A stretch of 64,000 bases of DNA from Chloroflexota bacterium (GCA_012719135.1 JAAYAW010000079.1:9723-73722); one strand, 5' to 3'; numbered from the stretch's first letter, positions 20,969-36,916 are shown. Notes: generated by a model from the sequence alone, not told the origin. Program-made: numbers and translations.

Positions 20969-21421
20969 TCAGGATCCTCTTTGTAGTGCCTTGCGTGCCA
21001 CGGCAATGCGCGCCCGGGAGCGCCGCAATGCCAGATCGTGCGCTGCCTGCAACTCTGCGCGGATCTCGTGTCGTTTTGCCAAAAGCCTTGCCCGTTCGAG
21101 GTCGTCTTCGGCGCGCCGCAGGTCGATTTCCTCTGCTCGTTCGGCCGTGTCTGCCAGGACGGTAACGGCGTCGTCCACGACCTCTACGAACCCTCCGCCC
21201 ACAGCCCAAGTATCCGTGCCCTGCTGATGCACAATATCGAGTTCGCCGGGCTGCAACAAAGCCAGTAACGGAGCATGGTGCGGGCGTATCGTGACCGTTC
21301 CCTGTACCGCAGGTGCCGTGAGCGCCACGGCAGGTCCATGATACAGCATCCTGTCTCCCGTGACCACTGTGACATCCAGGCGTGCCTCGGTGCCCGGTGC
21401 CGGCTTGGCTCCATCCGCCAT
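20969..21421 (-). CDS. atpC: F-type ATP synthase epsilon subunit (operon 1)
   Basis: IRPHHAPLLALL, VGGGFVEV and VLADTAERAEEID motifs. Confidence 0.92.
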   Translation of the reverse strand: MADGAKPAPGTEARLDVTVVTGDRMLYHGPAVALTAPAVQGTVTIRPHHAPLLALLQPGELDIVHQQGTDTWAVGGGFVEVVDDAVTVLADTAERAEEIDLRRAEDDLERARLLAKRHEIRAELQAAHDLALRRSRARIAVARKALQRGS

Positions 21422-21422
21422 A

Positions 21423-22826
21423 TCAGGAGCCTGACCTCGTCGCGGCCGCAGCTATCACGTCATCGAGCGTACCCTGCATGTAAAAGGCCTGCTCGGGGTA
21501 GTCGTCCATCTCACCGTCCAGGAGAGCCCGGAATCCTCGTACCGTTTCGCGAATCGGGACGTAGCGACCCTCGCGCTGGGTGTAACTCGATGCAACGAAC
21601 ATCGGCTGTGACAGGAAGCGCTGGATCTTTCTCGCGCGTGAGACGATGAGCCGGTCGTTCGCCCCCAGTTCCTCCAGGCCGAGGATCGCGATGATGTCCT
21701 GAAGGTCGTGGTAGCGCTGCAGAACGGACTGCACTTCTCGGGCTGTGCGGTAGTGATCCTGTCCCACGATAGCCGGGTCCAGGATGCGGGAGGCGGAGGC
21801 CAATGGGTCGAGAGCGGGGTAGATGCCGAGCTCGGCTATCGAACGCTCCAGGGCGATCGTGGCGTCCAGGTGGGCAAACACCGTGGCAGGCGCAGGGTCA
21901 CTATAGTCATCCGCGGGGACGTAAACGGCTTGCACAGAAGTGATCGAGCCCCGCACCGTGGAGGTGATACGCTCCTCCAGTTGGCCCACCTCCGCGGCGA
22001 GAGTCGGCTGGTATCCCACCGATGAGGGCATGCGCCCCATCAGAGCGGATACTTCAGTGCCTGCAAGGACAAAGCGGTAGACGTTATCGATAAAGAGCAG
22101 CAGATCCATGCCCTGATCTCGAAATCCCTCGGCAATAGTCAACCCCGTCAGAGCAACGCGGGAACGGACGCCAGGAGGCTCGTTCATCTGGCCAAAGACG
22201 AGTGAGGTCTTTTCCCGGACGCCCGCCTCTTCCATCTCGTGCCAGAGCGCGTTGCCTTCGCGGCTGCGCTCGCCTACGCCACAAAAGACCGAGTAGCCGC
22301 CGTGTTCATACGCGATGTTGCGGATCAGTTCATAGATGATCACGCTCTTGCCCACCCCGGCGCCTCCAAACACGCCGACCTTGCCTCCGCGCGGGAAGGG
22401 CGTCAGCAGATCGATCGCTTTGATGCCCGTCTCGTAGACTTCCACATCTACGGACTGCTCGGTGAAAGGAGGGGCGGGCCGATGGATCGGAAGCGAAGGA
22501 CCTCCGGAGAGTGGTCCCATTTCATCGATCGGCTCACCGAGAACATTGAGCATCCGGCCCAGCACCTGCTCGCCGACGGGCACCGTGATGGGACCGCCAC
22601 TATCGATCGCCCGCATGCCTCTCTTGAGCCCTTCCGTGGCGCTCATCGCCACGCAGCGCACAGAACCGTTATCGAGTTGCTGCTGCACCTCGGCGACCAC
22701 GTTCTGCTGCCCGGGCGCCCGGATCACCACGGCATGGTTGATCGGCGGAAGCTGGTCCGGCGGAAAGGCGATATCTACAACCGGTCCAATGATCTGTGTG
22801 ACGTATCCTGACGGGCGATCGCTCAT
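21423..22826 (-). CDS. atpD: F-type ATP synthase beta subunit (operon 1)
   Basis: GGAGVGKS Walker [16 protein letters not shown] and [10 protein letters not shown] motifs. Confidence 0.96.
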
Positions 22827-22828
22827 GC

Positions 22829-23689
22829 TCAACTCCCGTTTTCCAGTGAGAGTGCACTGCTCACTTCGTTCATTTCTGCCGTGATGGTCTGTTGCCTTGT
22901 CTTGTTGTAGTTCAGGCGAAGGTGCTCCACCAACTCTTGCGCGTTGGTGCCGGCCGAGCGCATGGCAACTGCGCGTGCGACATTCTCGGCAGAAAAGGCC
23001 TCCAGGACCGCCAGATGGACCGCGGATTGGAGCACGCGCGGCAGGAGCGTGTCTACCAGCGTAGCGGCATCAGGCTCAAAGTAGAACTGCCGCAGGCGGG
23101 GCGTGCGAGCAACATCCAGAGGCAGCAGCCGGCGCACCGTGGGCTTGAGCCGTGCACCGTCCCGATATTGTGTGTAGGCTATGGCTACCTGGGCGAACGC
23201 CCGGTCACGGTAACCCCGGAGCATGTAGGTGGAGATGGGCGCGATTTCATCCATCTGCACGTGAGAGCTGAGCTGGCTCCAATCAGCCGCTACCGGCAGC
23301 CCACGGTGGAGCAGAGCGGAGTGTCCCTGTGATCCGATGGTATGGAATTCGACGCCGTCAGCGAGACCTTGCGCGTACTCCAAGGCCACCCGGATGACAC
23401 TCTGATCCTGTCCGCCCGTCATCCCGCGGGAACTCGTCACAAGCAGTAGACAGGTTCGGTCTCCCGCTCCGGATGTTTCAGGGGCCAGCGACGACGTTAC
23501 GTCAGGATCATCCAGCGAAGCGAGAAGGCCCAGCATGCGCCACGCGCTGTCCGTATAGGCAATCGAGTTGTCAAGGCGCTCCTGCATGCGATGCGCCGTG
23601 ACGGATGACACCGCCTCCATTGCGTGGATGACCTGCGATATGCCGGTCACGCTCCGGATGTGGCTCCGAATATCCCGCAGCGAAGGCAT
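22829..23689 (-). CDS. atpG: F-type ATP synthase gamma subunit (operon 1), divergent
   Basis: [23 protein letters not shown] and [10 protein letters not shown]; lies between atpA and atpD. Confidence 0.88.
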
Positions 23690-34861: not shown

Positions 34862-34878
34862 TTGCGTATCCTATCCAC

Positions 34879-35157
34879 CTAACGAACATCAGGTCGAGCC
34901 CGACTGATGATGAGAGCGCGACCGATCAGGAGGCTGCTGAGAGCCCCCACACACGCAGCCAGGCCCATCTGGGCCACGGCATAGAGAACCGGGGTCCAAA
35001 GGATTATGCGTAGCGGAGCCGACCCGGCGAGCCTGATCGTCCTATGTTCCGGCCCACCACACGCCCTGCGTATGGCCTGGTGCAAGAGAAACATGTGCAG
35101 GGCAATGGCGGCACCCCCCAGGGCCAATCCTTGGATCAGCTGCGCCAGAGGCGTCAC
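34879..35157 (-). CDS. Small membrane protein, probable N-ATPase AtpR
   Basis: 92 aa with 3 hydrophobic segments, in the atpR position of the atpDCQRBEFAG order. Confidence 0.65.
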   Translation of the reverse strand: MTPLAQLIQGLALGGAAIALHMFLLHQAIRRACGGPEHRTIRLAGSAPLRIILWTPVLYAVAQMGLAACVGALSSLLIGRALIISRARPDVR

Positions 35158-35522
35158 TCTCCGGTCTCCTGGATACTCTCCAGCACGCTATCGCCGATCA
35201 CCTCCCGGAGAGCAGCCTCCATCTCGTCTACCAGTTGTTCACGATCCTCTGCCGCGCGCTCGCCGGGCTCGGCGAGAAGGAGGACGCAATGTGTCTCATC
35301 GATCACAAGCACACCTGGGCCCGGGGACAGAGCCTCCTCTCCGCTCTCGGTGAGGTAACGAAGCGTGCCACCGCCTACTGACGCGATGAGTGGTGCGTGT
35401 TCCGGGTAGACTCCGAGGAAACCATCCTCAAGCGGAATCTGGGCCCATCGTACGCTTCCATCAAACAGGACTTGCTCCGGTGTCAGGACCAGGAGCCACA
35501 CTCTGTCTCCCGAGCCAGTCAT
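35154..35522 (-). CDS. atpC: N-type ATPase epsilon subunit
   Basis: VLTPEQVLFDG and GFLGVYPEHAPLI motifs. Confidence 0.88.
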   Translation of the reverse strand: MTGSGDRVWLLVLTPEQVLFDGSVRWAQIPLEDGFLGVYPEHAPLIASVGGGTLRYLTESGEEALSPGPGVLVIDETHCVLLLAEPGERAAEDREQLVDEMEAALREVIGDSVLESIQETGE

Positions 35523-36916
35523 CAGAGGGTCTCCGCCTTCTTGCGCGCGTCGGCGATCGTGCCGACCATGTAAAAGGCCTGCTCTGGCAAATCGTCGTGT
35601 TCGCCCGCCAGGATTTCCTCAAAGCCGCTGAGCGTCTCCTCGAGGGAGACAAAGGTGCCGGGTATGCCCGTGAACTGCTCGGTGGAGTAGAACGGCTGAG
35701 TAAGGAACCGCTGCAATCGGCGAGCGCGGTGAACGGTGAGCTGATCCTCGGGGGAGAGCTCGTCGACGCCCAAGATGGAGATGATGTCCTGAAGCTCCTG
35801 GTACTTGGCCAGTACCGCCTTGGTCTGCCCGGCGATCCGCACATGCCGTTCGCTCACGTACCGGGCATCCAGCATCTTGGACGAGGACTCGAGCGGGTCC
35901 ACAGCCGGGTAAAAGCCCTGGCTGGATAGACGGCGTGTCAGAACGGTGATGGCATCCAGATGGGCGAAAGCGGCCACCACGCCCGGATCAGTAATGTCGT
36001 CGGCCGGGATATATACGGCCTGGACCGAGGTGATCGCTCCGCTCAACGTGGTGGAGATCCGTTCCTGAAGCTCGCCCATCTCCGTCGCGAGAGTTGGCTG
36101 GTATCCTACAGCGCTCGGGAGACGGCCAAGCAGGGCAGAGACCTCTGAGCCGGCCTGAACGTATCGGTACACATTGTCGATGAAAAGCAGCACGTCGCGC
36201 TCGGATTCATCACGAAAGCTCTGCGCGATCGTCATCGCTGTTAGGGGGGTGCGAAGCCTCGCGCCGGGCGGTTCATTCATCTGGCCGAACACCAGAACGG
36301 TGTTCTGAAGCACGCCACTGCCCCTCATGTCCAGCCAGAGATCGTTGCCTTCGCGGGTTCGCTCGCCGACGCCAGCGAATAGGGCATAGCTTCCCTGGTC
36401 CTCAGTCGAGTGGCGGATAAGCTCGATCACCAGAGTCGTCTTGCCGACGCCCGCCCCGCCGAAGAGGCCGATCTTGGCCCCTTTGCCATAGGGTGTCAGC
36501 AGATCGATGACCTTGAGGCCTGTCTCAAGCACCTCTGACGAGAGCTTTTGCGTGGAGAGTGCAGGGGCGGAGAGATGCAGCGGCCTTCGGGGTACTTGCT
36601 CGGAGAGCGGTGAGCCGCCATCGATAGTTTCGCCAAGGACGTTAAAGATCCTTCCCAAGGTCGCAGGTCCGATGGGCACCTGGATCGGCTTCCCGGTGTC
36701 CCGTACGCGGAGGCCTCGCGCCAGGCCCGATGTGGACGACATCGCGATGCAGCGCGCCGTTCTGGAATCGACGTGCTCCTGGACCTCGACAACGAGATCC
36801 ACTTCCCCAGGCCGCTCTATGTAAAGCGCGTGATTGATGCCGGGCAGATCACCCACATCAAAGCGTACGTCGACGACGGCACCCATAATGCGGGACACCC
36901 GTCCTGTTCTCTCCAA
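35522..36916 (-). CDS. atpD: N-type ATPase beta subunit
   Basis: [25 protein letters not shown] and DELSPED; first gene of the operon. Confidence 0.96.

Follow-up and report, generated by a model that had tools for sequence, protein, structure and literature searches.

The minus strand of a 64,000-nucleotide (nt) stretch of a Chloroflexota bacterium genome (GCA_012719135.1, JAAYAW010000079.1:9723-73722) carries two complete F-family rotary ATPase gene sets in tandem. This stretch is referred to as the window, and positions are counted from its first letter unless a named locus is given. Operon 1 (O1) runs from 27729 to 20969 and operon 2 (O2) from 36916 to 30387. An earlier sequence-only reading had described two complete operons with opposite predicted coupling ions, and their gene content, orders and extents were borne out: all 17 ATPase genes are open frames at the expected coordinates, and each matches its expected Pfam family. 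O1 begins with a gene of the AtpQ/AtpZ family, followed by the genes for subunits a, c, b, a short delta, alpha, gamma, beta and epsilon. O2 begins with beta and epsilon, followed by a small protein with three transmembrane (TM) segments, a, c, a b-delta fusion, alpha and gamma. Exactly these two F-type sets were found in the source genome (2.64 Mb, 101 contigs, 99% complete), and a search of the whole genome returned no further c subunit.

The genes of O1 are as follows (lengths in amino acids, aa).

27259..27729, minus strand: first gene, AtpQ/AtpZ family (PF09527), 156 aa; 47.7 bits, cut-off 26.6
26381..27262, minus strand: atpB, a subunit, 293 aa, Arg235 in FRLFGN; Pfam, residue script
26111..26335, minus strand: atpE, c subunit, 74 aa, I24, E57, A58 and Y62; Pfam, alignment, residue script
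25590..26081, minus strand: atpF, b subunit, 163 aa; Pfam, NCBIfam
25228..25593, minus strand: atpH, short delta subunit, OSCP model positions 103-172 only; Pfam, NCBIfam
23693..25279, minus strand: atpA, alpha subunit; TIGR00962, 723 bits, cut-off 484
22829..23689, minus strand: atpG, gamma subunit; Pfam, NCBIfam
21423..22832, minus strand: atpD, beta subunit; TIGR01039, 728 bits, cut-off 463
20969..21421, minus strand: atpC, epsilon subunit, 150 aa, full length; Pfam, NCBIfam

The genes of O2 are as follows.

35522..36916, minus strand: atpD, beta subunit, 464 aa; TIGR01039, 685 bits, cut-off 463; alternate-F1F0 beta model, 590 bits, cut-off 752
35154..35522, minus strand: atpC, epsilon subunit, 122 aa, weak C-terminal part; ATP-synt_DE_N, TIGR01216 positions 4-100 of 130
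34879..35157, minus strand: atpR-like, 92 aa, three TM segments, Arg in TM2 and TM3; Pfam AtpR, E 0.0067, 17.3 bits, below the cut-off of 26
34193..34861, minus strand: atpB, a subunit, 222 aa, Arg164 in LRLFGN; Pfam, residue script
33882..34154, minus strand: atpE, c subunit, 90 aa, E32, E65, S66, T67 and Y70; Pfam, alignment, PDB search, residue script
33090..33869, minus strand: atpF, b fused to a C-terminal delta, 259 aa; ATP-synt_B at 9-122, OSCP at 141-245 (model positions 67-171)
31285..33093, minus strand: atpA, alpha subunit, 602-aa frame, first ~90-100 residues poorly conserved; open frame, Pfam, NCBIfam, relatives
30387..31292, minus strand: atpG, gamma subunit, 301 aa; Pfam, NCBIfam

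The two sets are ancient paralogs. Their subunits are 51% (alpha), 54% (beta), 27% (gamma), 31% (epsilon), 25% (a) and 32% (c) identical, and a tree joining O1 and O2 in one clade was rejected by the approximately unbiased (AU) test (p-AU 0.003, 38 log-likelihood units). Both a subunits retain the essential Arg, in a motif of the LRLFGN type. GC and GC3 (GC content at third codon positions) are similar in O1, O2 and the flanks.

Enzyme class and ion-binding sites

O1 has the canonical (I/Z)-B-E-F-H-A-G-D-C order, and its atpA and atpD lie above the NCBIfam equivalog cut-offs. Its alpha and beta subunits both fall inside the canonical F clade (support 93/99 for beta in the careful tree, 100 for alpha in the quick tree), which also holds Bacillus, E. 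coli, Legionella, Fusobacterium, Acetoanaerobium, Nonomuraea and Parabacteroides. The earlier description of O1 as a canonical F-ATPase thus stands. Single-copy beta subunits from other families of the class are 63-68% identical to O1 beta versus 56-60% to O2 beta, and O1 therefore looks like the lineage's own, vertically inherited F1Fo ATPase with a predicted H+-type c subunit. Among the matches listed, its nearest named locus belongs to an Anaerolineae metagenome-assembled genome (beta 69% identical), and the organism is accordingly placed in the Chloroflexota, probably in that class.

One feature of O1 departs from the textbook enzyme. A full-length OSCP with its N-terminal helical domain was not found; the delta frame has at most 121 aa, its match ends with the last position of the 172-position model, and O1-type deltas across the family likewise cover only the C-terminal third. 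This is a known trait, since a preprint lists short deltas for Chloroflexota and ties them to a cryo-electron microscopy (cryoEM) structure of the two-stalk Chloroflexus aurantiacus F-ATPase (10.64898/2026.10.01.756066). Across the class, delta occurs as a full-length protein (~175-190 aa), as a short free-standing one and fused to b (~250 aa), the fusion being present even where the sole beta is F-type. We also observed that PF09527, the AtpQ or 'gene 1' family of N-ATPase operons, heads the F-type O1, matching in two stretches, and that the N-type O2 is without one.

For O2, the sequence-only reading had set the order D-C-R-B-E-F(delta)-A-G beside atpDCQRBEFAG, the order that defines N-ATPases. 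We compared the operon with the N-ATPase features described by Dibrova et al. (2010; PMC2881411). As in N-ATPases, atpD and atpC come first, followed by small membrane genes and atpB-E-F-A-G, and this arrangement is conserved in 13 of 13 O2-type loci of relatives. A DC-first order also occurs in an F-type operon of Parabacteroides, with a separate delta, so order alone is not diagnostic. There is no atpH, and the long AtpF has a delta-like C-terminus (ATP-synt_B plus OSCP), aligning over its full length to the alternate-F1F0 b model (alt_F1F0_F0_B); b-delta fusions where the only beta is F-type make this feature less specific in this class. The 'tell-tale' gene of N-ATPases is atpR. Every O2-type locus has a ~90-100-aa frame with three TM segments at the atpR position, with Arg in TM2 and TM3. 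Profile-profile comparison with hhalign of 10 O2-clade sequences against six reference AtpR proteins gave 92% probability (E 6e-7) with both Arg residues aligned, and the control comparison of the same small-protein profile with AtpQ gave 1.3%; by this measure O2 has an AtpR, the single protein lying below the Pfam AtpR cut-off. Finally, N-ATPases are expected to be the second rotary ATPase of a genome that also has an F- or A-type, which agrees with O1 in the same genome and with O1 or A-type enzymes in relatives.

In the alpha and beta trees, for which seven N and seven F references were used, the O2 clade (support 100/99) lies outside the F clade. It is placed, with poor support, near an N-ordered operon from a haloarchaeal plasmid and a sister group made up of G018, G026 and G032. 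All N-architecture operons as a single clade were not rejected and even gave a slightly better tree (p-AU 0.59), in a test whose groups, like those of the O1-O2 test, were chosen once the tree was known. The O1 beta of G011, whose frame is in two pieces, and the split alpha frames of E. coli and Cereibacter were left out. Because DC-first order and b-delta fusion are of limited specificity, it is AtpR and the trees that carry the case for N-ATPase membership, and we file O2 as a putative N-type ATPase of a divergent, AtpQ-less lineage.

Three findings pull away from this assignment. No atpQ (PF09527) was found in O2, where epsilon and atpR overlap and leave no room for it. O2 misses the cut-offs of all seven NCBIfam alternate-F1F0 models (TIGR03305, TIGR03324, TIGR03322, TIGR03321, TIGR03306, TIGR03323, TIGR03166), with 590/752 bits for beta, 621/750.5 for alpha, 74/131 for c, 95/225 for b, 142/302 for a, 76/282 for gamma and 17/100 for epsilon. 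In the best trees O2 also stands apart from the cyanobacterial and proteobacterial N-ATPases. The original label holds for architecture and Na+ ligands, and is qualified by the missing atpQ, the model cut-offs and the placement apart from classical N-ATPases, a joint clade with which was not rejected.

Percent identity does not separate N from F. Compared across phyla, the N references share only 52-55% identity. Among the best matches of O2 beta, at least 80 named-genome loci with 53-61% identity, no O2-clade member was found and all have the canonical alpha-gamma-beta(-epsilon) order. O2 beta is less than 60% identical to all 116 records of a plasmid collection, in which the best matches are canonical Firmicutes enzymes.

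Some side observations concern these genes and their kin. An AtpQ-like frame is present at L011, a locus of the sister group. The N-terminal extension of O2 alpha (32823-33093, minus strand) comprises ~90-100 residues rich in Pro, Ser, Thr and Glu, its frame opening directly behind the stop of b-delta. It is poorly conserved, alignments with relatives beginning only at residue 28-106. Translation may in fact start at an internal Met around residue 91, and the distance from b-delta to the conserved alpha start is 90-300 nt in all relatives. The Salinigranum marinum plasmid operon (L016, 7953-14765) is an N-ordered F-family operon with an unusually long atpE (549 nt), placed in both trees near the O2 clade on a long branch and flanked by a transposase and a toxin-antitoxin pair. 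N-ordered operons outside the main N clade are also noted by ProAD (PMC11738941).

The c subunits differ at the positions that bind the coupling ion. A residue script read I24, E57, A58, I59 and Y62 in O1 c and E32, L63, E65, S66, T67 and Y70 in O2 c; in the alignment, I24 of O1 shares a column with E32 of O2. All side-chain ligands of Na+ rings of the I. tartaricus / F. nucleatum type (Q/E32, E65, S66, T67, Y70) are present in O2 c, which matches the c subunits of cyanobacterial N-ATPases and of Fusobacterium at all five side-chain positions and has the helix-1 Glu and ESTxxY of N-ATPases. The motif E...ESTAIY is kept in nine of the 10 O2-clade c subunits (ESG in G012). A PDB search with O2 c returned, among others, 3zk1 (E 1.4e-10) and 1yce, the latter named sodium ion specific. 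O2 c thus reads as carrying a full two-carboxylate Na+ site and O1 c, with Ile and Glu-Ala, as carrying an H+-type site, in keeping with the opposite ions predicted earlier. Na+-coupled N-ATPases are reported in two sources (PMC5376962 and 10.64898/2026.10.01.756066), the latter including Na+-coupled ATP synthesis.

Distribution in related genomes

The two operons are separated by 2,657 nt on the same strand (O2 gamma stop at 30387 to first O1 start at 27729), as the earlier figure of ~2.7 kb had indicated. The spacer contains two genes.

29335..30330, minus strand: unk331, membrane protein without a Pfam family; 56 nt after O2 gamma, overlapping the zwf start by 20 nt
27882..29354, minus strand: zwf, glucose-6-phosphate dehydrogenase; TIGR00871, 582 bits, cut-off 401; 152 nt before O1

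We searched 41 genomes, the source genome (G000) included. A beta subunit closer to O2 than to O1 occurs in 22 of the 41, and the tandem in six: all five genomes of genus g1 and G024. The order wzy-O2-unk331-zwf-O1-murA is identical in L001, L002 and L003, from G001, G002 and G024 respectively, G001 and G024 being single-contig genomes, and a beta-to-beta spacing of ~14 kb was also found in G003 and G004. Logan contigs of two further bioreactor runs cover 30 of 30 bins of the region, and exact contigs of both span the zwf/O1 junction (27453-28275 and 27504-28275). Since the two runs may share one campaign, synteny is the stronger argument against a chimeric assembly.

Elsewhere the operons are found apart. 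In G011 both lie on one contig, in opposite orientation and 33 kb apart; in G017 they occupy two long contigs, where their neighbours are other genes; six further genomes have O1 and O2 on separate, often short, contigs. Four genomes (G023, on one contig, G012, G010 and G018) combine O2 with a V/A-type A subunit above the cut-off and have no O1-type beta, and in G006 (90% complete) O2 has no detected partner. O2 is thus kept vertically in most of the family genomes searched, and its partner enzyme alternates between F-type and A-type. As O2-unk331-zwf and O1-murA(-gyrB) each form a conserved block, the tandem is a juxtaposition, in few genera, of the blocks wzy-O2-unk331-zwf and O1-murA, and is probably not needed for function. 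A clean deletion of O1 from an ancestral tandem found no support, as no murA follows zwf within the 1.3-2.1 kb examined in G023, G012 and G006.

G005 and G019 (family f1; 97% and 99% complete) have no F-type beta at an expectation value (E) of 1e-60 or lower, though OAD_beta is present, and may rely on an A-type ATPase alone. G026 (L012 and contig C62), a genome related at class level, has two betas, both closer to O2 (64% and 61%) than to O1, and two OSCP matches of b-delta length (256 and 283 aa), which may represent two non-canonical sets. In G010 there is an extra alpha/beta-family match (C110, 468-aa frame).

The spacer protein unk331 has 331 aa with N-terminal TM segments and no match in Pfam or NCBIfam. 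It follows O2 in seven of the 10 family O2 loci examined (L001-L006, L015) and not in L008, L014 or the sister group. In the ESM Atlas it falls among chelatase-like clusters of the CbiX/ferrochelatase kind (0.93), 15% of whose members carry Ferrochelatase; we regard this as a lead only.

Energetic setting and competing readings

Pfam searches of the 99%-complete source genome gave no matches for Rnf/Nqr, COX1 (haem-copper oxidase) or cytochrome bd. The genome encodes one Na+/H+ exchanger and one membrane pyrophosphatase, which passes NF001960 (named sodium-translocating) and TIGR01104 (H+) alike. Also encoded is a Na+-pumping decarboxylase, with the gene cluster complete and 470 bits for the beta subunit on TIGR01109 (cut-off 191).

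L110 (G000:C95:94000-107000), 5994-11185, minus strand: decarboxylase cluster (mmdA-like carboxyltransferase, OadA-like protein, gamma, biotin carrier, beta), next to secA; Pfam/NCBIfam

The cluster is present in 23 of 24 other family genomes, and OAD_beta in 21 of the 22 genomes with an O2-type beta versus nine of the 19 without. In RNA libraries, exact contigs of 151-336 nt without differences lie on O2 genes in 5/7 X20 records and 4/6 X23 records, a weak hint that O2 is transcribed in the bioreactors. No exact contig on O1 was found in X20 or X23, only 32-nt foreign pieces; contigs cannot show absence, and this has no bearing on O1 expression.

A single weak NuoL/M/N-like match was seen on contig C55 (462 aa, 36.6 bits). 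Its identity as part of complex I, Mrp or a hydrogenase was rejected, its neighbours being without such domains. The gene stands with a run of four co-oriented proteins without a Pfam family (549, 217, 118 and 206 aa; L112, 5252-9959, plus strand), which could be an uncharacterised transport module.

We consider it probable, though well short of certain, that one ATP pool serves two ion circuits in this organism, with O1 as a canonical H+-type F1Fo ATPase, O2 as a divergent N-type enzyme with a Na+ site, and no need for their adjacency. The cell would be a fermenter. O2 would work reversibly in a Na+ cycle, making ATP from the Na+ gradient of the decarboxylase or expelling Na+ at the cost of ATP, a role we infer from the presence of the decarboxylase and the respiratory pumps not being found. 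O1 would mainly hydrolyse ATP and so keep up the proton-motive force. The conversion of one ion gradient into the other via ATP, as proposed in the sequence-only reading, is in this setting possible and draws some indirect support from the same bioenergetic make-up.

Several points weigh against this account. Gene content and order, residues, phylogenetic placement and distribution are observed; direction of operation and regulation are predictions, and so are the coupling ions, read from sequence. Such ion calls can fail: the N-type ring of Burkholderia pseudomallei was predicted to be Na+-specific and proved H+-specific, according to PMC5376962, O2 differing at exactly the positions concerned. 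The respiratory-pump result rests on six Pfam searches, outside which lie hydrogenases, fumarate and nitrate reductases and other pumps. Co-occurrence of OAD_beta with O2 is largely the shared ancestry of one family rather than independent, and nine genomes have OAD without O2. The RNA library may contain DNA. The classical reading denies ATP synthesis to N-ATPases (Dibrova et al., 2010; PMC2881411), and an enzyme that hydrolyses ATP would be consistent with the weak C-terminus of O2 epsilon.

That classical division of labour, with O1 as the ATP synthase and O2 purely as an ATP-driven exporter of Na+ under salt or alkaline stress, with no part in ATP synthesis, is a possible alternative to which we give serious but lesser weight. 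It is the standard model, it agrees with a partner rotary ATPase gene or fragment being seen, or not excludable, in 21 of the 22 O2-type genomes (all save G006), and the truncated alignment of O2 epsilon suggests that its hydrolysis-inhibiting part may be reduced. However, the Pfam searches revealed no pump, whether respiratory, Rnf/Nqr or of the complex I type, by which O1 could be driven as a synthase, and the decarboxylase is a primary Na+ pump, which builds up a Na+ gradient instead of relieving it. The sequence occurs in runs labelled as bioreactor, soil, manure and sludge metagenomes, none of them marine or hypersaline by label. Retention of O2 across the family while its partner changes also speaks against this division, as does the Chloroflexota genus T78, in which, according to ProAD (PMC11738941), the N-type is the sole enzyme in 18 of 20 genomes.

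The roles may also be fully inverted, which we think unlikely. The N-type enzyme would then be the ATP synthase, driven by the Na+ gradient of the decarboxylase and perhaps the pyrophosphatase, the canonical F-type would run backwards and pump protons, and the pair would form a converter from Na+ via ATP to H+. N-ATPases would, if so, be core energy-conserving enzymes of fermenting Chloroflexota and not accessory salt pumps.

That both enzymes are H+-coupled, the second Glu of the O2 site staying protonated as in B. pseudomallei, appears quite improbable. The c17 ring of that species has two carboxylates and yet is H+-specific (PMC5376962), and ProAD counts 893 H+ versus 914 Na+ N-ATPases (PMC11738941). 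O2, however, has Ser66/Thr67 in place of the Burkholderia Thr/Met and agrees with the c subunits of cyanobacterial N-ATPases and of Fusobacterium at all five positions, and its motif is kept throughout the O2 clade with one exception.

The sequence-only reading had also suggested that adjacency itself could matter, through hybrid assembly or ion switching, and had noted a candidate promoter for each operon. The promoters were recovered as follows.

36970..36998, minus strand: promoter-like site upstream of O2, TTGGCG-17-TATAAT; 10/12 matches, ends 54 nt before atpD
27795..27823, minus strand: promoter-like site upstream of O1, TTGACG-17-TATCAT; 10/12 matches, ends 66 nt before the first start

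They are two of four sigma-70-like sites in 19.3 kb, compared with 4.6 +/- 2.2 in shuffles; the total is not above chance, and only the placement of these consensus matches, as putative promoters, is notable. The terminator scan gave 13 sites versus 9.3 +/- 3.4 in shuffles, which leaves read-through undecidable from the scan. A single co-regulated unit with subunit swapping, or with an ion switch by read-through, would fit the shared strand, the short spacer gaps, the finding of no minus-strand terminator-like site in the O2-O1 intergenic gaps, and the retention of the tandem in two genera. It would nevertheless surprise us, and we do not uphold the suggestion: the operons lie apart in G017 and G011, the partner is A-type in four genera, each operon has a full subunit set and its own promoter-like site, identity between subunits is only 25-54%, and the stators are of different build (a short, unfused delta versus a b-delta fusion). 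An assembly chimera or recent duplication has a negligible probability and was, within the reach of these data, ruled out in spite of the draft state of the genome (101 contigs), given the identical order in two single-contig genomes and one other, the contigs bridging zwf and O1, the like composition and the rejected O1-O2 clade.

Comparison with known systems

Both the pairing and the presence of N-ATPases in this phylum are already known, since ProAD (PMC11738941) catalogues them: an H+ F-type with a Na+ N-type ranks first in frequency among F+N combinations (164 genera), and N-type enzymes stand beside A-types in Chloroflexota, as in G023, G012, G010 and G018. ProAD clustering joins loci only within 1,000 nt, and its accessible text mentions no tandem F+N. 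No report of a tandem F+N locus was found in the literature, the ProAD and Koumandou supplements not covered. What is unusual here is only the side-by-side position and the odd lineage of the Na+-site enzyme, and the position adds little, being local synteny of the commonest F+N pairing on record.

Close in features are the cyanobacterial Na+ N-ATPases (Acaryochloris marina pREB4, the Picosynechococcus plasmid operons and the Aphanothece halophytica enzyme). Like O2, they have atpD-C first, AtpR, a c subunit with E...ESTxxY and a long AtpF that ends in a delta-like tail; atpH is lacking, and they are second enzymes beside an H+ ATPase (Dibrova et al., 2010). Unlike O2, they have atpQ; their beta subunits are 53-54% identical to that of O2, which branches apart, and O2 is chromosomal and vertical within its family whereas the cyanobacterial operons are plasmid-borne. 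The B. pseudomallei N-type enzyme shares operon architecture, the two-carboxylate c subunit and AtpR with O2 (PMC5376962), and the Burkholderia-type c site is E/E-T-M/Y (B. pyrrocinia reference) as opposed to E/E-S-T/Y in O2. On the side of O1, whose delta is confined to the C-terminal OSCP third, the C. aurantiacus F-ATPase with its small delta and two peripheral stalks is comparable (10.64898/2026.10.01.756066). The c-ring of the Fusobacterium Na+ F-ATP synthase (3zk1) has the same E32/E65/S66/T67/Y70 set as O2 c. The Fusobacterium operon has the canonical gene order, and its alpha and beta subunits belong to the F clade, unlike those of O2.

Propionigenium modestum runs a Na+ cycle in which a Na+-pumping methylmalonyl-CoA decarboxylase feeds a Na+ F1Fo ATP synthase. 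The present genome likewise combines a Na+ decarboxylase with a Na+-site rotary ATPase and no detected respiratory chain; here the Na+-site enzyme is N-type and stands beside a separate H+ F-type, and the coupling is a prediction. The cellular role of N-ATPases has been open since 2010, and the vertical retention of O2 beside a variable partner, together with a primary Na+ pump and no detected respiratory chain in this genome, provides a comparative argument that such enzymes can join a core Na+ cycle. As a compact operon, O2 could be expressed for testing Na+-driven ATP synthesis. Set against these systems, the new elements are a well-defined AtpQ-less N-type lineage and a hint, from comparison of genomes, that in non-respiring Chloroflexota N-ATPases may count among the core enzymes of a Na+ cycle.

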